Source: a virus
Virus record (IMG/VR): IMGVR_UViG_3300032268_001296
Location: 32,001 to 96,000 of that record
DNA: 64,000 nucleotides
Direction: 5' to 3' (one strand)
A model generated the notes under the pieces. It worked only from the letters and a program-made list of their open reading frames with translations, had not been told where the DNA came from and searched no databases. Of the stretch, positions 31,771 to 45,741 are shown one piece after another (position 1 is the first letter of the stretch; each line of letters starts with the position of its first letter). Both the position numbers and the translations under genes were made by a program.

Positions 31771-32146
31771 CACAATTATCGCAATCGGTCATCTTGTTAA
31801 AGATCCAGAAACTCGCGTCACGAATACTGGAAAGTCTATTTGCACTTTCCGAATTTGTATCTCTGAAAGTAACGCAAAGAATAAGTGTTTTATTGATGTG
31901 GAAACTTGGGAGAAGACTGCTGAAGTTTGCCAAAAGTATTTGGTAAAGGGTCGTGAAGCAATGGTGGAAGGAGAACTTTCCATGTCTAGTTGGACTGGAA
32001 AAGATGGAAATGCTCAAAGCAAGATGTTCATCAAGGGAAATAAGGTTAAGTTCCTTGGTGGTGGACAAAAAAGCGATAAGCCTACAACTTCCGCAGCAGT
32101 TGTCGATTCTGAATCAAGCGACACCGACGAAGATATTCCGTTCTAA
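31763..32146 (+). CDS. ssb: Single-stranded DNA-binding protein
   Basis: IGHLVKDPE, W...AE, KG..VEGEL, C-terminal DEDIPF. Confidence 0.95.
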   Translation: MYNTIIAIGHLVKDPETRVTNTGKSICTFRICISESNAKNKCFIDVETWEKTAEVCQKYLVKGREAMVEGELSMSSWTGKDGNAQSKMFIKGNKVKFLGGGQKSDKPTTSAAVVDSESSDTDEDIPF

Positions 32147-34549: not shown

Positions 34550-35737
34550 TTATATATCGTTCCAATTAACAGTTATGTTTTGCCATAAAAAGTTTAAATT
34601 ATTCCAAGTAATAGCATTTGGAATATTTCTCTTCATGAGAAATCCACCAGTTTCATTAGCTTCAAAAGAGAAATCAGCATTGAATGAAATAGTATTATTA
34701 ACTGTTGAAGAAAAACTTAAATTTTCTAGCTTTGCATTTTCTATTCTATAAAAACCTGTAACTAATCTATCAGAATCTCTAAAAGATACTTCAAAAGAAT
34801 AACCGCTTTCACTTGTTAGTATAGATTGAAATTGTCCACTTGATATTCCAGACACTAAGCAAGATATTCCAGCTTTTCCATTAACTGGATATTCTAATTT
34901 GCGACCATAAACATAATTGCTGCCAAGACCATATAAATCAGTTCTAGATAAATCCAAATTTAAATCAAAACTCTGCAATATTGGATTTCCTACAGCATCT
35001 AATGTTATACCTCCTACTTGCAGATTGTTTAGTTGAAATGAGCTATTATTAGATACGACTACTGGAGGATTGAATTCGTTTCTTAGTTTTGGATCATTGG
35101 ATATATATCCATCTTTTAAACTATCATATAATCCAGAAAGATCTAAAAATCCAGATCCACTATTGTTTCCAGATATACTGTTAATTGCTGGAATAGATAT
35201 TCTTCCTCCAGTTATATTTTCGAATCTAACATTAGAAGCAGAAAATCCAACATCCACAACTGGCACAGAATTTAAATTAAATGAAACAGAATAACTGTTT
35301 AAGAAGCAATTGCCAAAAGTTAAAGCTTGCATTCCGCTAAAATTAACTGAAGAAGCTGGCTTTTTAAAATCATCAAATCCATCTTTAATATCTTCTGGAT
35401 CAACGATTACATATATGTTTTGATCTCTATTTTTAAGATCTCTAACGCATGGCGCATATCCAGATCCGCTAGCATTAAATCCAAACAATATCTCATTGCT
35501 GCAATATGGATTTAAGTAGTAACTTAAACTTACATTCGCTTGTGGCGCTCTAACAATATGATTTACAGCATAAGACTGGCTTCCTACTTGTTTTATCTTT
35601 TGGTGCTCGTTTGAAATAGAAAAATCACACTTTTGAACGAGAGGAAATAATCTTGCAGTATCTCCTGTTGTTTTCCAAGCTGGAAAATCTCCCATTGCGA
35701 TAAACGCAGAATTACTTTTTAATACTTGTCGATTCAT
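34550..35737 (-). CDS. Tail-tube paralogue (minor tail / tip protein)
   Basis: Aligns by eye to 49820-50956 (VQKCDFSIS vs VQSANYNFS; VSLSYYL vs LDFSYYL; IENAKLE vs IKGAKLD). Confidence 0.65.
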   Translation of the reverse strand: MNRQVLKSNSAFIAMGDFPAWKTTGDTARLFPLVQKCDFSISNEHQKIKQVGSQSYAVNHIVRAPQANVSLSYYLNPYCSNEILFGFNASGSGYAPCVRDLKNRDQNIYVIVDPEDIKDGFDDFKKPASSVNFSGMQALTFGNCFLNSYSVSFNLNSVPVVDVGFSASNVRFENITGGRISIPAINSISGNNSGSGFLDLSGLYDSLKDGYISNDPKLRNEFNPPVVVSNNSSFQLNNLQVGGITLDAVGNPILQSFDLNLDLSRTDLYGLGSNYVYGRKLEYPVNGKAGISCLVSGISSGQFQSILTSESGYSFEVSFRDSDRLVTGFYRIENAKLENLSFSSTVNNTISFNADFSFEANETGGFLMKRNIPNAITWNNLNFLWQNITVNWNDI

Positions 35738-36681
35738 GTTCCTGTAGGTATTATGCCCAGTGGGTCTTCAATTAGATTGATTTCAATATTATGGGAATCT
35801 AAGTAGTTCCAAGAATGACTCCAAGATGGAGCGTAAAAAACCTTCGGTCTATTATAAACAGATGGTATCTGATGTAAAAATCTTCTATACCCAGCTTTAT
35901 TTTCTAAAAAGTGCATTATAGACTTAGCTTCAATTGTTGGTATATTTGTGAATTTATAAGATAGGTTTACTGGAGCCAAATGTTTTCTAGTTTTGATTCT
36001 TTGAATAAATGAATTCTTAAATTCTATTTTATCTACTTTAATCTGAACATCATTTTGAAGACCGATATCTGGTTCAAAAAAGAAAGATTGAGTCCACTTT
36101 GAACTTGATCCAGTTGGACCGTCTATGCTTGGCGAAGACGAAGTGTGATCTCCTGAACAATAATAATAGTTGTTTAATTTGTTGCTGCTTATGCCGCTAT
36201 AAATTATATCATACTTTTTATATGATCTTCCTGTTGACCAATGCTGCAAACCAGAGTTTATAAATGTCATTCCAGACCAATTTAATAAAGTCGGAGCTTG
36301 ATTAACATCAATTGATATTGCCACTTCATAGTGGTTTTTATTAATGTGATTTACTGCATAATTATCAGTTACTCCACTGATTGGCTTATAAAAAGCTGAA
36401 GCATCAGAGAATCTATATAATTCACATCCAGACTTTGACTCTATAAAATTTACAAGTTTTTGAGAATCAAATTGATTTAAATCAAATCTTAATTCAAACT
36501 TCGCATCTAGACTATTTATTGATAATGGAATTAAATTATAGTATCCATCTTGAGTTTCATAAACGTTTGCTTTAGAAGAAAACGAAACTCTAGATCCATA
36601 AACTGGACTATATGTTAATCCAGTAATTCTATTTCCAGAACTAAGTAATATGTTATTACTTCTATCGTAAAATGTACTCAT
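35734..36681 (-). CDS. Minor tail protein (distal-tail-like, duplicated domain)
   Basis: Follows TMP; internal repeat KLVNFIESKSG / SIMHFLENKAG. Confidence 0.6.
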   Translation of the reverse strand: MSTFYDRSNNILLSSGNRITGLTYSPVYGSRVSFSSKANVYETQDGYYNLIPLSINSLDAKFELRFDLNQFDSQKLVNFIESKSGCELYRFSDASAFYKPISGVTDNYAVNHINKNHYEVAISIDVNQAPTLLNWSGMTFINSGLQHWSTGRSYKKYDIIYSGISSNKLNNYYYCSGDHTSSSPSIDGPTGSSSKWTQSFFFEPDIGLQNDVQIKVDKIEFKNSFIQRIKTRKHLAPVNLSYKFTNIPTIEAKSIMHFLENKAGYRRFLHQIPSVYNRPKVFYAPSWSHSWNYLDSHNIEINLIEDPLGIIPTGT

Positions 36682-37470: not shown

Positions 37471-40400
37471 TTACTTTCTCAATGAGCCTCCCAATCTCTT
37501 TTCGTCTTGAATAACTTTAAGAACAACATCTTTGATTTGTCGTGCAAGCTGTTGTTTTTGTTCTGATGCGCCTCCATCGGTTGTTTGAGAAGATTTGCCA
37601 GTTGATCCATCAACATTGATGGTGATATTTCCAGCTGCGCTAGAAGCTTCAATAAGCTCGTCAAGCTTGGCGATGAGCTTCTCGTTCAACTCTTCAGTCT
37701 TTTCTTCTGTGACGATGCTTCCTGCGCCAGCATTGAGCGCTTGTAGATTACCAGCACCAATGTTTTGAGCAGCAGAGCGATTCATAATGAATTCGCCGCC
37801 TGAAAGCATTGCTGGAACTGTGTCGATTCCAGCTCTGAAAGGAATTGAACCTCCAGTTGCAAATCTTTCGTTTGCGCGTTCTTCTATATACTGTCCTTGC
37901 GCGTCAAATGGACCAGTAGTGAATGCTGGTATGTTATTATTATAAACACCATTATTAGATCCTCCAAAATTTAATGGAGAAACTCCTAAACCTCCCAAAG
38001 CAGAATTTACTTCATTTATTTGATCATTATCATATGGATTCACATTATATCCATTTGGAGCATTTTTATTTTTTGATGTTGAATATGATCCCCCAGAACT
38101 AAATAAATTAGATAAACCACCTTTTCCTTCAAAACCACTCCAAATTCCTTTAGCCGCATCAGTTAATCGTGCTGTTCCAGTTGCACCAGATCCAGCGTAA
38201 GCCTTAAAGAATCCAGATCCAGCAGCTAATACCACCGACAATATGAGTTGCTTTTTCAGTGCATCTTTTTCCGCTTCTGCTTGTTTTCTTGCTTCAGCTT
38301 GAGCTTGCATTTCTTGCATATACAAACCAAAAGCTTGTTCTTTCGCAGCTCTAGTTGCTTCAGCTTGAGGACTGTTATTGCGTCCAAAATTTGTCAATCT
38401 AACACTTTCTGGTTCCAAGTTTATAGAAGCATAATTTCCTTGATTTATTATCTGATCTCTAGATCCAGAAGTATATCCTTGAGTTGCAAACTTAAGTAAG
38501 TTGCGAGTTCCTTGAATTCCGCCAAGTCCATAAGTTCCTGGAGTAAAGAAACCTCCTTGACCACTTTGTATCATTCCTCCTTTTGCGTAACCGCCTAATG
38601 TTCCATTATTGATTGCTTCTAAAAATTGAGGTCCATATTTACCAACTGACTTTTTGTTGATAACATATTCGCCGCCCATTAACATTGCAGGGACATCATC
38701 TTTGGTTCCCGATCCACCTGAAATCATTCCTCCAGAGGCTTTGCCATTTCCTGCAAAAATTTTAGAAATGGATGAAAATACTCCTGAAGATGAATTTGGA
38801 TTTGATCCAAGAATCGAATCTATAGCATTAGACATTAATTTCTTGTTCAATTGTCTTACAAAATCTAAAGCTCCAGCTCTAAGAGTATCACTTAATGATT
38901 TTCCACCTTCAATAGCTTCAGAAATACCATCTACTAAATTATTTTTAAATTGAACGGAAGCATCAACGATTGTCTTATTAAGCTCCAACGTTCTTTCTTC
39001 GTTAGTTTTACTAAACTCTTCTGCAAACAACTGAGGGATTGTTTTTACCTGTCTTTTTCTCGCTATTCTTGCCGCTTCTTCTGGGCTTTGTCCTCTTTGC
39101 TGATTAAGAGTTTCTATTTCATAAGCAATTTCAGCGTTTCTTCTTCCAGATATAGAAGTTAATTTTTCTAATTCTAAATCTTGAATTTTTCGATCAATGA
39201 TATCTGTAGAATCAAGCAGAGATCTTCTAAACATTTCTAAAGCTGATATAACTGGCTCTATTGCTCCAGCTTCTCTTGTGCGAGCATCTGCTGCCGCTTG
39301 GGATGATTCAGCGTCTAATTGAAGACTTTCAGATTCTTGTTTCAATTTTAGGATAAAGTCTTTGATAGCTTGATTATCTTCTTCATTAAATCTAGTCGCG
39401 CCAATAAGGTTTTCAGCTTCTGTTATTAAGCTGCTCATAGTTTTCGCGCTTTCAAAAGCATTCCTATATGTCATTGCTGAAATATCATCTGTTGGTTTTG
39501 CTAAACCCAACAATTCCCCCCTTTTTTCTTCGAGCATTTTATTATAATTTGCAGCATTTTGCACAGCCACAGTATTAGCTTCAATCGCAGCGATTTGAGC
39601 GTCTATTACTCTAATTTCTTCAGTTGATCTACCTAATTTTGAAGCTTGTAATTGAGAAATTCGCTGAGTATTTGAAAACTCAGATCTTCTTGAAGATATG
39701 TCTATACCAAAAGCTCTTTGTTGGGAAGCTCTTTGTGCGGAAGAGATTATATCTTTTATTGTTGATGCTTGGTTTTTATATTCCTCTGTTTTTTGTTGTT
39801 GAGTTTTTAAATCTTCCTTATCTAAATTATATTTCTTTAGAAGATTATCTAAAATCTGTTCATTTTCTTTTCTCTGAGCTTCTGTGAGATTAGTTCCAGT
39901 ACCCAACAATATATTTATTTCTCCTAGTAATTTAGTAACTGTATCTTTATTTTTGAAATCATCTTCTGAAAAAGTTTTTAATTGTTCTTCTAGCTTAATT
40001 GTTTGTTTTTTATCTGCTACAAGCAATTTAGCTTTATCAATCTGTCCTTTGAGAAGATTAGAAGTTTCGTCTATTAATTTTCTATCTAAATCGCGCAAAG
40101 CTATTTTATTCTCTAAACTTCTAATATCTTTTTCGCTTAAATTATTAAGCTCCTTGGCAGAAAGCAATTGAAGATCTAATTCTTGAGTAGTTCTTTGTTG
40201 TGCAATTGAAAGATCAATAGTATTCTTTAATTGATTTTGAGCATAAGAAATATTCATTAAATCTAATGCTTCTTTAGCAGTATCTGCAAATGCATTCTTA
40301 AGATCTATAGTTGCATCATATATTCTAAGAATTTCACTTTTTACAGCTTCGCTATTTATGTCAAATCCTATTTTTTGATCATCCGTTAATTGGCTTAAAA

Positions 40401-43400
40401 TTGCATTTTGAATCATTCCTATCCCTGTATTTGGATTTGGAGTAGATCCACTTTTTAAATTTTCCAAATCAGACATTATATCTTGTCTAGATTTACCAAT
40501 AAACTCTTTTCCAATAGTTCCTGTTGGAGATAAATCTAAATTTCTTTTTGCATTTTTTAACTGCGATGATGTAAATATTAATTTAGAAAAAGAACCTGTT
40601 AATTCATCTACTTCTTTAACAGTTATTTTCCCATCTGCTGATTTTTTTCTTATTTCATCCCACATTCTGTTATAGCTCACACCAGCAGCGTCTGCATTTT
40701 TAACAACATCTACTAAACTTTTTTCTAATTCTCCAGCTGTAAAGAAATCTGAGCCTTCAAAATCAGCCATAAAACGAGCTGTCATGCTCTCTCTTGCTGC
40801 TCCTCTGACTAAACCTATTGCCGAAGATTCTATTTTCTTTTTTCCTGGTTCAGATAAATTTTCAAATGTAAATGCCGCATTTTTCACCGCTTCGGACATC
40901 TTGGCTATATTAGCTGTAGCTGCTTTAGTAATACCATAATATTCATCCATTATTTTTCCACCAGCCGAAAAAGATGCTATTGCTCCAGCTGCTGCTAATC
41001 CATATGGCCCTAACTTTGCTAACGCTGGACCTACTTTTCCGCCAATTTGGCCTAAACCTTGAATAGCGAATGCTGCTGTCACAAAACCTCCAGCACTTTC
41101 TGATACTATATTAGTATATTTTGCAAGTTGTGATGAAGCATCACTTGTAGCTCCAGTCAATATACTAAATGCTCCTTGCAACGCAAAGATAGTTCCAAGC
41201 ATATCTTTTTGTCCACCTTGTGCTTGAACAGTAGCTTCTTTACCAGTTAAGGTTTTGCCTTTACCAAAAGCTCCTTTTGACTGTTCAATGATTGCTTTTC
41301 GAGTTGCATCTGAAGATTTTTTAAGAGCTTCTCTATCATCTTCTAGAGCTTTTATTCTATCTTGCGCTGCTTTTTTGTTTTTACCTCTAGCTTGTTTTTC
41401 ATCAGCCGTTGCTTTTCTTAATTCAGTTATAAGATCTGCATAAGCTTTTCCATAATTTCTAGATTCTTCCGCTAAAGCATCACTTCTTGTTTTACCTACG
41501 TATCCAGAAATGTCTGGCGCATCTGCATAATTCGGCACAAATCCACTTGCCGCACCATATGTTTGCGGATTCATGCCTTCTTTTCTTGCTCTATTGATTC
41601 CTTGAAATCCACCTGCTGGTTCATCACGGCGATTAGCAACCATTAATCCCATTGGATTAGCCGCGTTTTTAAGAGATGAATTTTTGTCTATGTAGATTTG
41701 AGAAGCAGGAACTCCCGCAGCCATTTCACGGTTAACTGCATCTTTAAGAGGATTTGCAAAATTTGGCAAGAAGCCTTTTGCGGCTGTTTTCTTTTTTTTG
41801 CTGTCTATATAGTTGAGCATTTTATCAACTACGTCTCTAGCTGGAGATCCAGTAATTCGCGCAAAACCTGGATCAATAAGACTAGCAACTCCACCATTAG
41901 ATGCCATTTCTCTCAATAAAGTCAGCGATCCAATCGGATCTGAAGGATAAGTTGAAAACTTACTCAAGTAATTCTCAGCGTTTTTATTAAGTATATAATT
42001 AGATCCATGTAAATCAGTAAGATCTAAACCTTTGGTTTTTACAGCGGAGCGTAGAGTTCCAAGTCCAAACAATCTAGCTTTGTCAGAACCAAGTGCTATC
42101 TTTCCAAGTTTACCAGATATAATTTCTTTTCTTATTGCTCCTCGTCTGTTGGATTCATTGAAACCAGACAATGTTTTTGGACCATAAATACCTGGGATGT
42201 TCAAATATCTATTGATATACTGACTGATCAACCATTCCTGAGAAAGTGCGTTTTTTGGACCATCTTTATAAAACTTCTTAACACCAACATCTATTCCCTC
42301 TTTTGTTCCAAGTCTTAAAAATCTAGCTTCTGCACCAGATCCAATTTCTCTACTTTTGCTAACAAAGTTTGGGATGTAACCCTTAGCGGCATTAGGAGAT
42401 TTTCTAGCTTTGGATTGTTGACTTATTTGAGATAATATTTTTGGAGCGATGTCTCCATCGTTCATTGACTTTTTGATAAGAGTATTAACTTGACCTTGAA
42501 AATTTTCCGTAGACCCACCTCCTCTTTTCGCATCACCTCTTACAGCTTTTACTCCCAACATTTGATTCATTGCAGCTGGGTTAGTAAAATCAAATGGTCT
42601 ATTTTCATTTTTTGGATCAAATGAATCAGAAAGACCTTTCATTGTAGTCAATGCAGCTTTACTAGCAGCTTCAAAAAGCTGACCTTCTGCACCCGCAGGA
42701 AGAATTCCTCCTGTGGATGTAGATTTAAGATTTCCTAATTGATCTGCAAATTCTCCCGCTTGCATTCCAGAATAAAGTCGCCCATATAAAGATTGAGCGA
42801 GCGTCACGATTGGACCAGCAAAAAGTTTATTGATTTCTGAAGATATTTGTTCGAAATTCTTTTTAGTAGGAACTCCAGTTTGTTGAATATTGCTTAAAAT
42901 GATTTGATCATCATCTAAAATACCTCGCGGCTTATTTTTTTTAAAATCAGAACCTTTTAGTTTTGCCGAAACATATCCAGAAGCATCTCCATTCCTCGGA
43001 GTGACTAAAGCGATTCCTCCTAAAGTATTTGCGTCAATTTTGAAATCGAGAGCGCCTTCTTTAAGTTTCTGCTGTCTTACCTTATCTTCTGTTTGTTTTC
43101 TTTGTGTAGCAATAGATGGATTTCTTTTAAGAACGTTATCAATATTTGATTGGTAAGTTTCTAGGCCATTAGGGAAAACGAATTTTTTTCCACCTGGTTC
43201 TTTTCTGTAGCTTTCTAAATCTGGATAATATTGTCTAATAGTGTCTGCTAAATCAGCAAAGTTTGGTATAAATCCAAAAGAAAGATTTTTTATATATTTC
43301 CCAAAATCATCAATTTTTCTAGGTCTTCCATATTTATTCGATCTATATTTATCAGTATTGATTAAATCTTGTTTTAACGTTTTTGCTTTTGAAAAATTTC

Positions 43401-45741
43401 CTCTATCTGATTCATCAGAATGAACTAGCAAACCATTTACTTTGATATTATCTTTATTTTTTGTCCAAACATCTAAAGGTAAATTACGACCATAATTTTC
43501 TATATTCGCTCTTAAAAATTTTAATTTTACATCACTATCGTCCCAAGACCCACTTTTAACCTCTAAAAGAGAAGTTGGACCTTTGAAGCCGTCCACTGCT
43601 GAATTTTCCTTTCCGAACATTCCTCCAGTAGTATATCCATACTGCTTAGCGATTCTTTTCTCATAATCATTAGTTGATTCTCCTTTATTTCTAGGGACGT
43701 ACAATTTTTGATATCCATTTCCAATCAAGTTAACATTATCGTCTTTTGATAATCTTCCATCTGAAGATTGAGATATATTAATTTTTGGCACAAGAGTCGT
43801 ACTAAAATATTTTACTATTTCAGAAACTTTTGCAAAATTTGGAATCAATCCGCCAGATGCAGTGATCTTCTTAGCTCCAGATGGCAAGCCCATAGAGCGA
43901 ACCATGTCTCTGTTAAAGATAGCTGTTCCGCCACTTCCTCCAAAATTAGGAACCGCATATTCTCCAGTATGAGCTACAATAGATCCTTTTTTGCCTTGAC
44001 CAAAATTAAAATTAGGAATAACAACTGGACGATCTCCAGCTTTTGCACCACCAACACCTTTTTTAATGTCGGATGATTCTTGCGATACAGCAGGCATGTA
44101 TCCGCCAGCCGCTTTAGGAACTCTTAAGCCTTCTCCAGAGCTTCTTACTCCTTGTTGATAAAGAGGAGCTGCTAGCGAGCTTGCTGTAGAAGCCATTCTT
44201 CTCATTGCTGCTTCTTGCATTACAATAGCGTCAGACATGACTTTGATCTGAGCCGTGCGATTTCCTTCTAATGCAAAAAGTTGACGCTGAAGATTGATAT
44301 TCTTAGAAAGAGCTGAAGCAATAGACTGTTCAACATTTTGAATCTCTTTTGCTGCTTTACCAATTCCAAAGAAACCTTTTAAGCTTGCAAAACCAAATTG
44401 CGCAAGATCTTTTGAAAGCTTTAAGATAATAGCTGCAAATAAAGCTAAGCCTGGACCTGTAACAAGATTTCCAATACCTTTAGCTAAACCTCTGAAAACA
44501 TCTCCCAACGCACTTTCTTCGCCAAGAATTTTTTGGATACTTTCTAGAAGGCCATTAAAGAATCCAAGTAAACTTTTAGCACTGTCAGTGATGCCAATTT
44601 TTCCCAATGTAGCTCCAAGCTGTTCTGCACTTAAAGATGTCTTATTGATTAAAGCAGCTAATGTAACATTTAGAGCCGCATTCTTTTCATAAGCTTGATT
44701 GGTGCTTTTCAAAGATACTTCGGTAGCTTTAAAAGCTACTGAAGATTGACTGCTCAAATCCTCTAAAGTTGCTAATAATTTATCAATCTGGAATCCGCCA
44801 CCAACTTTTTCAGTAATCTCTGCGAGCTGTACTTGATTAAGACTTTTAATTGTTGCCGCTAAGTTTTCGAGAAGTTTTGTAGCTGGCAGTATCTTGCCTT
44901 GAACATCTGTGACAGAAACTCCAAGCTGTTGTAAAGCTTCTAATGTATCTGTTCTTTGCAATCTTGTGAAGATCGTTTTAAACGAGTTACCAATAACTGC
45001 TCCACCAACTGATGTCTTTTCTTGAACTGCCGTAATAATACCAACCAACTCATCAAAAGAAACTCCAGCCTGTTTCGCAACAGATGACGATCTCTTAAGA
45101 CCTTCAATCAAATCCTTTTCAGAAACTGAATATTTTTGAGAAACAGTAACTAATTTGTTTAAAACTTCAGATGTTGTAATGCCTGTGCTTTTAAAAGCAT
45201 TAACTGCCGCAGTTAAACCAGAAACAGATCTTTCTGCATCCAATCCAGAAAGGCGAGTTAGAATAAGAGCATCATTAATTCTTTTAAGAGACTCTTCAGT
45301 ACTTAAACCTTGTCTAGCTAATTCAAGAGCGCCTTTTGCAACAGCATCAAATGATTGACCTGTATTTTTAGCTACGTTGAATAAAGAGTTTCCGAATTTG
45401 TCTAATTCAGAAGAACTTTTTTGGAAGACAGAATTGATTTCTGTTAAAGACTTTTCAACTGCAATAGTGTTCTTAACCAAAGAACTAAAAGCGCTAGATA
45501 CACTATTAATAATACCAACAGAAGCTCCGAACGCAAATACGCGAGCATTTGCCGCTTCCATCGACTTAGTGAATTCGTCAGCTTGTCCAGTAATGCGGCC
45601 AAGAGGTTGAGCTAATGCATTAATTTGACGGGAATTCGTTCCCAAATTAATTTGAGCGCCCTTGCCCGCATTTTTCAATGCTGCTTGAATGCTTGCTTCT
45701 AACCCTGTTTGTGTTACTGGTATCTGAACTGACGCTGGCAT
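37471..45741 (-). CDS. Tail tape measure protein with internal nuclease-like and kinase-like cargo domains
   Basis: N-terminal TP901-type TMP core (ELARQG, GNSFKTIFTRL), long helical region, C-terminal GG...VPAML.GGE(Y/F) motifs; SD AAGGAG. Confidence 0.9.
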   Translation of the reverse strand: MPASVQIPVTQTGLEASIQAALKNAGKGAQINLGTNSRQINALAQPLGRITGQADEFTKSMEAANARVFAFGASVGIINSVSSAFSSLVKNTIAVEKSLTEINSVFQKSSSELDKFGNSLFNVAKNTGQSFDAVAKGALELARQGLSTEESLKRINDALILTRLSGLDAERSVSGLTAAVNAFKSTGITTSEVLNKLVTVSQKYSVSEKDLIEGLKRSSSVAKQAGVSFDELVGIITAVQEKTSVGGAVIGNSFKTIFTRLQRTDTLEALQQLGVSVTDVQGKILPATKLLENLAATIKSLNQVQLAEITEKVGGGFQIDKLLATLEDLSSQSSVAFKATEVSLKSTNQAYEKNAALNVTLAALINKTSLSAEQLGATLGKIGITDSAKSLLGFFNGLLESIQKILGEESALGDVFRGLAKGIGNLVTGPGLALFAAIILKLSKDLAQFGFASLKGFFGIGKAAKEIQNVEQSIASALSKNINLQRQLFALEGNRTAQIKVMSDAIVMQEAAMRRMASTASSLAAPLYQQGVRSSGEGLRVPKAAGGYMPAVSQESSDIKKGVGGAKAGDRPVVIPNFNFGQGKKGSIVAHTGEYAVPNFGGSGGTAIFNRDMVRSMGLPSGAKKITASGGLIPNFAKVSEIVKYFSTTLVPKINISQSSDGRLSKDDNVNLIGNGYQKLYVPRNKGESTNDYEKRIAKQYGYTTGGMFGKENSAVDGFKGPTSLLEVKSGSWDDSDVKLKFLRANIENYGRNLPLDVWTKNKDNIKVNGLLVHSDESDRGNFSKAKTLKQDLINTDKYRSNKYGRPRKIDDFGKYIKNLSFGFIPNFADLADTIRQYYPDLESYRKEPGGKKFVFPNGLETYQSNIDNVLKRNPSIATQRKQTEDKVRQQKLKEGALDFKIDANTLGGIALVTPRNGDASGYVSAKLKGSDFKKNKPRGILDDDQIILSNIQQTGVPTKKNFEQISSEINKLFAGPIVTLAQSLYGRLYSGMQAGEFADQLGNLKSTSTGGILPAGAEGQLFEAASKAALTTMKGLSDSFDPKNENRPFDFTNPAAMNQMLGVKAVRGDAKRGGGSTENFQGQVNTLIKKSMNDGDIAPKILSQISQQSKARKSPNAAKGYIPNFVSKSREIGSGAEARFLRLGTKEGIDVGVKKFYKDGPKNALSQEWLISQYINRYLNIPGIYGPKTLSGFNESNRRGAIRKEIISGKLGKIALGSDKARLFGLGTLRSAVKTKGLDLTDLHGSNYILNKNAENYLSKFSTYPSDPIGSLTLLREMASNGGVASLIDPGFARITGSPARDVVDKMLNYIDSKKKKTAAKGFLPNFANPLKDAVNREMAAGVPASQIYIDKNSSLKNAANPMGLMVANRRDEPAGGFQGINRARKEGMNPQTYGAASGFVPNYADAPDISGYVGKTRSDALAEESRNYGKAYADLITELRKATADEKQARGKNKKAAQDRIKALEDDREALKKSSDATRKAIIEQSKGAFGKGKTLTGKEATVQAQGGQKDMLGTIFALQGAFSILTGATSDASSQLAKYTNIVSESAGGFVTAAFAIQGLGQIGGKVGPALAKLGPYGLAAAGAIASFSAGGKIMDEYYGITKAATANIAKMSEAVKNAAFTFENLSEPGKKKIESSAIGLVRGAARESMTARFMADFEGSDFFTAGELEKSLVDVVKNADAAGVSYNRMWDEIRKKSADGKITVKEVDELTGSFSKLIFTSSQLKNAKRNLDLSPTGTIGKEFIGKSRQDIMSDLENLKSGSTPNPNTGIGMIQNAILSQLTDDQKIGFDINSEAVKSEILRIYDATIDLKNAFADTAKEALDLMNISYAQNQLKNTIDLSIAQQRTTQELDLQLLSAKELNNLSEKDIRSLENKIALRDLDRKLIDETSNLLKGQIDKAKLLVADKKQTIKLEEQLKTFSEDDFKNKDTVTKLLGEINILLGTGTNLTEAQRKENEQILDNLLKKYNLDKEDLKTQQQKTEEYKNQASTIKDIISSAQRASQQRAFGIDISSRRSEFSNTQRISQLQASKLGRSTEEIRVIDAQIAAIEANTVAVQNAANYNKMLEEKRGELLGLAKPTDDISAMTYRNAFESAKTMSSLITEAENLIGATRFNEEDNQAIKDFILKLKQESESLQLDAESSQAAADARTREAGAIEPVISALEMFRRSLLDSTDIIDRKIQDLELEKLTSISGRRNAEIAYEIETLNQQRGQSPEEAARIARKRQVKTIPQLFAEEFSKTNEERTLELNKTIVDASVQFKNNLVDGISEAIEGGKSLSDTLRAGALDFVRQLNKKLMSNAIDSILGSNPNSSSGVFSSISKIFAGNGKASGGMISGGSGTKDDVPAMLMGGEYVINKKSVGKYGPQFLEAINNGTLGGYAKGGMIQSGQGGFFTPGTYGLGGIQGTRNLLKFATQGYTSGSRDQIINQGNYASINLEPESVRLTNFGRNNSPQAEATRAAKEQAFGLYMQEMQAQAEARKQAEAEKDALKKQLILSVVLAAGSGFFKAYAGSGATGTARLTDAAKGIWSGFEGKGGLSNLFSSGGSYSTSKNKNAPNGYNVNPYDNDQINEVNSALGGLGVSPLNFGGSNNGVYNNNIPAFTTGPFDAQGQYIEERANERFATGGSIPFRAGIDTVPAMLSGGEFIMNRSAAQNIGAGNLQALNAGAGSIVTEEKTEELNEKLIAKLDELIEASSAAGNITINVDGSTGKSSQTTDGGASEQKQQLARQIKDVVLKVIQDEKRLGGSLRK
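41524..44112 (-). repeat. Six dispersed copies of an AxxG[FYL][ILMV]PN[FY]A-like peptide within TMP
   Basis: AAGGYMPA 44089-44112; ASGGLIPNFA 43831-43860; LSFGFIPNFA 43255-43284; AAKGYIPNFV 42361-42390; AAKGFLPNFA 41755-41784; AASGFVPNYA 41524-41553. Confidence 0.9.

Follow-up and report, generated by a model that had tools for sequence, protein, structure and literature searches.

A predicted minimal protein-kinase-like module inside a phage tape measure protein

The stretch of viral DNA analysed here, 64,000 nucleotides in full (the window), covers positions 32,001 to 96,000 of the IMG/VR record IMGVR_UViG_3300032268_001296, a linear sequence of 112,197 bp that is rated 87% complete by CheckV and has a G+C content of about 35%. 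The window encodes a tape measure protein (TMP; 37471..45741) as a single stop-free open reading frame (ORF) of 2,756 amino acids on the minus strand, as are all features described below. Within this protein, at amino acids 1121-1328, lies a kinase-like module with a short peptide delimiter on either side (41758..42381, both delimiters included). A sequence-only reading of the DNA had proposed that a protein-kinase-like domain is embedded in the TMP, and the carrier is indeed a genuine TMP. Amino acids 124-314 match the Pfam family PhageMin_Tail (PF10145, E 2.2e-32) and ten TMP PHROGs match the 2,756-residue ORF (best E 2e-49). This domain, the great length of the protein and its position in a tail module are those of the PF10145 (TP901) family, and relatives of the protein carry the Joint Genome Institute (JGI) label 'TP901 family phage tail tape measure protein'. 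Two genes downstream of the TMP gene is a minor tail protein gene resembling lambda gpL (35734..36681; Pfam Phage_min_tail PF05939, E 1.3e-11; PHROG 14), and a large terminase gene is found farther upstream. Judged by its family matches, the gpL-like neighbour sets the TMP within the tail module of a siphovirus.

What identifies the module as kinase-like? Five motifs had been reported in canonical order, namely a Gly loop, a beta3 lysine, a helix-C glutamate, a catalytic loop and the sequence IDPG, and all five were found on the minus strand in the order claimed, within TMP amino acids 1132-1292. The range first noted, 41785-42360 (amino acids 1128-1319), takes up nearly the whole stretch between the delimiters at amino acids 1121 and 1323. 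Domain numbering, to which 1120 is added to obtain TMP numbering, is used below for the predicted model and for conservation, which was counted over an alignment of 38 homologous modules with a median pairwise identity of 35% and a minimum of 23%.

The predicted glycine-rich, ATP phosphate-binding loop EIGSGAEA (42325..42348, amino acids 1132-1139) lies between beta1 and beta2. Its first two glycines are each present in 37 of the 38 modules (G14 and G16), while the third position is Gly in 25 and Ala in 12; most homologues have a full G-x-G-x-x-G-x-F loop, and in the window's copy Ala replaces the third Gly. The sequence VGVKK (42274-42288, amino acids 1152-1156) holds the predicted beta3 lysine, K1155 (42277..42279; K35, in model strand 30-37), and LSQEW (42232-42246, amino acids 1166-1170) holds the predicted helix-C glutamate, E1169 (42235..42237; E49, in model helix 45-58); both residues are kept in 37/38 homologues. 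A further lysine, K1205 (42127..42129; K85), is invariant (38/38) in the N-lobe's final strand, beta5 (model strand 82-86).

The catalytic-loop motif DLHGSNY is encoded at 41995-42015 (amino acids 1243-1249). Its core, D1243-L-H-G-S-N1248, is of the D-x-H-x-x-N type (41998..42015) and falls between model strands 119-121 and 129-131. The aspartate (D123) is found in 37/38 modules, the histidine (H125) in 36/38 and the asparagine (N128) in all 38, at a D-to-N spacing of 5; the residue preceding D123 varies among homologues. Downstream, the Mg-binding motif IDPG (41866-41877, amino acids 1289-1292) contains D1290-P-G (41866..41874), the equivalent of the metal-binding DFG motif of kinases, between model strands 166-168 and 174-176. 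Here D170 is kept in 37 of 38 modules and G172 in 35, and between them stands P, V or A, but never F. A two-helix insert separates the catalytic loop from the D-x-G motif (amino acids 1253-1281, 41899..41985; helices 133-139 and 149-161, predicted local distance difference test (pLDDT) above 95). N128 and D170 are consequently 42 residues apart, and H125 and D170 are 45 residues apart with two confident helices between them. The corresponding Asn-to-Asp spacing in protein kinase A is about 13 residues.

The motif set is more than a chance assembly, given that its residues are near-invariant at a median identity of 35%. Between the window's module and the 82%-identical module of a related viral locus (L015), the ratio of nonsynonymous to synonymous substitution rates (dN/dS) is 0.20, which indicates that the module's frame is under purifying selection.

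The predicted structure points in the same direction. AlphaFold2 supplied with the 38-sequence alignment gave a model with a mean pLDDT of 89.4 and a predicted template-modelling score of 0.83; prediction from the single sequence was uninformative (pLDDT 36). The modelled order of elements is beta1-beta2-beta3-alphaC-beta4-beta5-alphaD-alphaE-beta6-beta7-insert-beta8-beta9-helix, with beta1 at residues 12-15 and beta2 at 19-27. Each motif sits on the element where a member of the protein-kinase-like (PKL) superfamily carries it: the Gly loop between beta1 and beta2, the Lys in beta3, the Glu in helix C, the D-x4-N catalytic loop between beta6 and beta7, and the downstream metal-binding Asp, as D-x-G, between beta8 and beta9. 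The model also has the bilobal PKL fold, that is, a five-stranded N-lobe with helix C, alphaD and alphaE, and a beta6-beta9 core. The N-lobe is complete and the catalytic core of the C-lobe is kept; there is no activation segment and no alphaF-alphaI, a single helix follows beta9, and the insert adds about 30 residues between the catalytic loop and the D-x-G motif. The sequence-only reading had staked itself on a kinase fold being predicted, and a kinase fold was predicted.

Comparison of the model with known structures returned kinases throughout. Foldseek found 183 matches in the PDB at E<=1e-3, and those listed were all kinases, including Kae1-Bud32, ULK1, RIOK2 and Rv3197. The top 50 VIA-align matches were likewise all protein-kinase-like enzymes (Bud32, RIO, UbiB/ADCK3, Ark1, OspG/NleH and APH), and the five best were the UbiB-type Rv3197, Bud32, two Rio2 and Rio1. 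The BFVD library of viral structures gave kinases only, none of them close. In a protein atlas built with a language model, the neighbours of the module were an OspG_kinase cluster (0.95), APH and ABC1/RIO1 clusters, and viral proteins of 220 amino acids without a family name. Structural similarity to RIO and Bud32 extends over the whole minimal kinase core, and the earlier suggestion that the motifs fit a eukaryotic-type, RIO or Bud32 kinase is borne out by matches led by the Bud32 and RIO classes, with the motifs on their assigned elements. Because the order of elements, the placement of residues and all fold matches are kinase-type, amino acids 1121-1328 are confidently predicted to form a minimal PKL domain, in the size class of Bud32, OspG/NleH and Ark1.

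Can the module be assigned to a known kinase family by sequence? The profile search against kinase families that had been proposed as a check on the idea was negative for Pfam, PHROGs, NCBIfam and PDB sequences alike. No Pfam kinase model matched the whole TMP, four sub-segments of it (E<=10) or nine homologues, and for the module and the nine homologues this includes the APH and Kdo kinase models. The module stretch had no kinase match in PHROGs, and none was found in NCBIfam among five module sequences. A phmmer search of the module against PDB sequences found no kinase, its top matches, to titin and N1L, being noise. A profile built from one of the alignments (A3), 982 positions long with flanks included, had 0 matches among PDB sequences. 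The RIO1 model PF01163 gave no candidate in the phage genome and was positive in 11 of 14 control genomes, and hmmscan likewise gave no RIO/Bud32 family match. Features of canonical eukaryotic-type protein kinases (PF00069/PF07714), namely the HRD motif, an activation segment ending in APE and helices alphaF-alphaI, were not found.

Profile-profile comparison was hardly more productive. The module profile aligned by hhalign with the single sequences of Escherichia coli UbiB (E 0.15) and SrkA (E 0.33) without significance, with the motifs aligned in the case of UbiB. Against 120 homologues of T7 gp0.7, the 38-sequence profile gave a marginal match (P 0.007) over 31 columns that cover the catalytic loop only; against the single T7 gp0.7 sequence the match was also marginal (P 0.0075), extending over 171 columns with the Gly loop, the Lys and the catalytic loop in register.

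Relatives of the module itself are few. When 1.84 billion representative proteins were searched exhaustively with HMMER, only 24 relatives of the 210-residue stretch came up; each of the 24 belongs to a giant TMP-like protein, and those of full length have 2,000-5,300 residues. A second homologue search added relatives, nearly all of which have PF10145 and the JGI tape-measure label. Some TMP-like proteins (P0014, P0018, P0020, P0021 and P0022) carry two or three tandem copies of the kinase unit. The module was unmatched by tblastn in 50,697 deposited phage genomes, and no relative turned up when 185,579 species genomes were scanned twice in search of a host. By these searches the module is a kinase-like family that has no Pfam, PHROG or NCBIfam model and was previously unannotated; in the literature, no paper was found that describes a kinase domain inside a TMP.

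The nearest described kind is the kinase of polyvalent proteins, a family to which the module, compared with it by description, may belong (PMC5512222). Polyvalent proteins of phages and conjugative elements carry Ser/Thr/Tyr-type kinase domains that lack the C-lobe (Iyer, Burroughs, Anand, de Souza and Aravind 2017, J Bacteriol; PMC5512222). Like the TMP module, these are kinase cores in giant multidomain phage proteins predicted to enter the cell with the DNA; they have lost the C-terminal subdomain while keeping the active site intact, and between their conserved His and the Asp further downstream they carry an insert. Both also have GNAT and nucleotidyltransferase companions, a variable, cassette-like architecture and stand-alone versions (PMC5512222). 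Two sequence features set them apart. Polyvalent kinases have a Gln in the N-lobe's final strand, where the TMP module has its invariant Lys (K85, 38/38), and they have a Glu before strand 2, whereas position 18 of the module is Glu only in close relatives of the window's copy. Furthermore, the carriers of polyvalent kinases, which were reported from (pro)phages of Verrucomicrobia, Chlamydia and Bacteroidetes, are not TMPs, and the term 'tape measure' occurs 0 times in that paper (PMC5512222).

Compared with Bud32/PRPK and RIO1/RIO2 (PDB 3en9, 2vwb, 8unk, 6fdo, 1tqi and 1zp9), the module has no hidden Markov model match, has D-L-H-G-x-N as its catalytic loop and a 30-residue insert before D-x-G, and stands outside KEOPS and ribosome maturation. 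It shares no detectable sequence homology with the type III secretion effector kinases OspG and NleH (PDB 4q5h and 4lrj; PF22303), which act in eukaryotic cells, OspG depending on E2~ubiquitin for its activation, whereas the carrier of the module is a phage tail protein. The catalytic loop of E. coli UbiB, DMHPGN, is the same D-x-H-x-x-N variant as that of the module. The T7 kinase gp0.7 (T7K; PF27024) shares this variant, with the loop DMHSGN where the module has DLHGSN, and it has DPV in place of DFG where the module has DPG. Through promiscuous phosphorylation, T7K disarms many defence systems (PMC13645617). A free protein made from an early gene, it has a C-terminal DNA-binding and shut-off domain and is not part of the virion, whereas the module is part of the TMP; T7K also lacks the long insert before DPV, which amounts to about 30 residues in the module.

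How is the module set within its carrier? It is one of four units of a cassette that extends from amino acid 631 to 1405 of the TMP (41527..43851) and is marked out by delimiters at amino acids 631, 823, 1121, 1323 and 1400. The delimiters have the consensus G-x-[ILV]-P-N-[FY] or, in extended form, [AS]-x-G-[FY]-[ILV]-P-N-[FY]-[AV]. The third and the fourth delimiter enclose exactly the kinase module. They read GYIPNF upstream (amino acids 1121-1126, 42364..42381), in which G1 and P4 hardly vary across the alignment, and GFLPNF downstream (amino acids 1323-1328, 41758..41775). The TMP has seven PN[FY] motifs where shuffled sequences lead one to expect 0.28 (at most 3 in 2,000 shuffles), nearly all homologues have 2-11 such delimiters per protein, and they are present also across 77 related viral TMP loci. 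At the DNA level, just 20-34 of 57 nucleotides are identical at the junctions; because this identity is low, the delimiters are conserved as peptide and not as DNA, and the same figure rules out that they are mere DNA repeats driving recombination. Their role could be that of linkers, docking sites or processing sites.

The 77 loci were obtained by scanning viral contigs with the N-terminus of the TMP and include about 60 complete TMPs, only three of which have the kinase unit (L015/L016 and L065). The TMP of locus L021 is 82% identical to the window's over amino acids 1-1117 and then lacks exactly amino acids 1118-1319, a 202-residue unit from delimiter to delimiter, after which the alignment resumes; locus L017 has the same gap. 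Since it is missing as an exact unit from related TMPs, tail assembly does not depend on the kinase unit, which is acquired or lost in one piece. In three IMG/VR contigs (L021, L017 and L027), the first 560 residues of the TMP are 80-95% identical to those of the window and the contents of the cassette differ, which points to recent exchange of units between closely related phages.

The other cassette units are distributed differently. Among 39 relatives, the unit at amino acids 637-822 is found in 3, that at 829-1120 in 11 and that at 1329-1399 in 31. The first of these (43276-43833) has no Pfam match; it contains the sequence V-D-G-F...L-L-E-V-K (43555-43596), a D...E-x-K pattern reminiscent of PD-(D/E)xK nucleases. 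The last, a short unit of 71 residues without a family match, follows directly after the kinase unit (41545-41757) and is the best conserved of the cassette (31/39 homologues, dN/dS 0.16), always standing last before the final delimiter. In homologue P0039, two GNAT acetyltransferase matches fall inside two delimiter-bounded units, and one member of alignment A3, probably P0010, has a match to cytidylyltransferase-like/HIGH nucleotidyltransferases. An SLT lytic transglycosylase in homologue P0033 lies outside the cassette, in the C-terminal part.

Beyond the cassette, the window's TMP has a Gly-rich C-terminal part with two copies of the motif V-P-A-M-L-x-G-G-E-[YF]-[VI] (38662-38694, amino acids 2350-2360, and 37786-37818, amino acids 2642-2652), which is kept in the family consensus. 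Membrane-like hydrophobic segments occur in the TMP at amino acids 422-449, 1514-1532 and 2494-2517.

What might such a module do? Conservation of the Gly loop, K1155, E1169, D1243, N1248 and D1290 is the reason for regarding it as an active enzyme that uses ATP, whether as a kinase or as an ATPase. The reading that is favoured, at somewhat better than even probability, is that the module is an accessory, virion-borne kinase or ATPase effector. Its starting points are the predicted fold, the conservation of residues, the TMP context and the modular presence and absence of the unit; from these we infer enzymatic activity, a substrate, presence in the mature virion and delivery to the cytoplasm. 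The module would travel in the virion as part of the TMP, would leave the tail together with it at infection, and would reach the ATP-containing side of the inner membrane just before the DNA and fold there. As a kinase, it would then act on host proteins near the site of entry, before phage genes are expressed. The absence of an activation loop and of the DFG Phe implies that the proposed action needs no activation, that is, the kinase would be unregulated. An ATPase role of the kind found in the closest structural relatives is no less possible than a kinase role.

Delivery of this kind, which the sequence-only reading had also inferred for a kinase active at injection, is plausible by analogy with the TMPs of phages P23-45 and lambda and with the T7 kinase. 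In Thermus phage P23-45, the N-terminal part of the TMP gp96 is a virion RNA polymerase that transcribes the pre-early genes (Chaban et al. 2024; PMC10770324). There, too, a cytoplasmic, NTP-using type of enzyme is built into a giant TMP, and the gp96 enzyme is head-proximal and active on entry. By contrast, the gp96 enzyme is a two-barrel polymerase essential for the phage programme, with no delimiter motifs reported, while the module is an optional cassette unit (PMC10770324). The authors of that study state that TMPs are thought to be metastable inside the tail tube (PMC10770324). The lambda TMP was labelled by a TurboID-ManZ fusion during injection (PMC13190303). The peptidoglycan-hydrolase motifs in the TMP of mycobacteriophage TM4 (Piuri and Hatfull 2006; PMC1796659) are also small TMP-embedded modules that aid infection and can be removed with tail assembly intact; their target, however, is the cell wall, which lies outside the cytoplasm, and they do not require ATP.

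Several points weigh against the module being a virion-borne kinase. The case builds on one predicted model together with motif conservation, and no sequence method ties the module to any kinase family. A distance of 42 residues from N1248 to D1290 is atypical for kinases, and so is the invariant K1205. UbiB, Bud32 and RIO, the closest structural relatives, are mainly ATPases, and APH and Ark1 act on small molecules or RNA. For this reason, the designation 'protein kinase' is not established. There are also physical objections to delivery. A TMP is expected in about three copies, folded domains of 200 residues should not fit into the lumen of a siphovirus tail, and the periplasm holds no ATP. 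Storage in an unfolded state or elsewhere, or removal before assembly, would be required.

The strongest competing reading sees the module as an ATPase or nucleotide-dependent switch, in which ATP would drive refolding of the TMP, opening of a pore, detachment of the TMP from the DNA end or entry of the DNA, with no phosphorylation of host proteins. This is rather unlikely. In its favour, the five best structural matches, from the UbiB-type Rv3197 to Rio1, are chiefly ATPases, the D-x-H-x-x-N loop matches that of UbiB, and the model has neither a substrate-binding C-lobe nor an activation segment. However, OspG and NleH are equally minimal and are true protein kinases according to their PDB titles. 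Moreover, about 95% of related TMPs lack the unit, some of them with N-terminal regions that are 82-95% identical. Being dispensable, the unit is a poor candidate for a core mechanical role in ejection, which leaves ATPase chemistry as such possible, and its co-occurrence with GNAT units suits effectors better than mechanics.

Two lesser rivals are both improbable. The first is that the module is a kinase of a non-protein substrate such as a lipid, a lipopolysaccharide or cell-wall precursor, a nucleotide signal or an RNA or DNA end, in the manner of APH, WaaP or the archaeal RNA kinase Ark1. Such an enzyme, by the same slim chance, might remodel the envelope at entry or neutralise a small-molecule defence signal. 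APH and Ark1 are indeed among the structural matches, but the large helical C-terminal substrate domain of APH is missing from the model, no Pfam APH or Kdo kinase model matches, and the G-x-G-x-x-G-x-F loop of most homologues is typical of protein kinases.

The second is that the module acts in the producer cell. The TMP is late and abundant, and the unit could modify host or phage proteins there, for example by blocking late abortive infection or regulating assembly, and might be clipped off before the tail is assembled. P23-45, where a TMP-fused enzyme is packaged and active on entry (PMC10770324), is a precedent to the contrary. Action in the producer cell would avoid having to fit folded domains into the tail lumen, and the delimiters, conserved at the protein level, could be the processing sites; yet Pfam scans detected no protease domain in the TMP, and late expression is poorly timed for counter-defence. 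Finally, an inactive pseudokinase, a structural spacer or a chance set of motifs is very improbable: the lack of a sequence family match and the poor single-sequence model would suit it, but a pseudokinase has typically lost its Lys, its catalytic Asp or the Asp of DFG, and here the catalytic residues are kept nearly throughout the 38 homologues at low identity and at a low dN/dS, in a confident alignment-based model whose fold matches are all kinases.

A more far-reaching version of the effector reading is tentative and itself rather doubtful. In this version, the region bounded by G-x-[ILV]-P-N-[FY] would be a general, exchangeable payload bay, and the TMP would double as a polyprotein. Its units (kinase, GNAT, nucleotidyltransferase, nuclease-like and other folds, an inventory that is just as tentative) would be swapped from motif to motif and would pass through the tail; in the cytoplasm they would be set free or exposed at the delimiters, perhaps through cleavage at the conserved Asn. 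A constitutive kinase would then disarm defences at DNA entry, before phage gene expression.

What is new here is the presence of a minimal PKL family in a new carrier, as a payload cassette of a TMP; multidomain effectors delivered by phages, enzymes fused to TMPs and phage kinases that counter defence all have precedents. With only 200 residues, the module is a compact test case for the minimum kinase fold, and its exact presence or absence between near-identical TMPs amounts to a natural experiment. T7K must first be expressed (PMC13645617), whereas a kinase built into the TMP, if there is one, would be in place at the inner membrane by the time the DNA comes in. This is where and when injection-stage defences act, among them the TMP-associated nuclease SNIPE (PMC13190303). 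The cassette with its delimiters suggests a general route by which siphoviruses pass enzymes through a lumen that should be too narrow for folded domains, and the phage particle may deliver a pre-made kinase or ATPase to the host along with its DNA.

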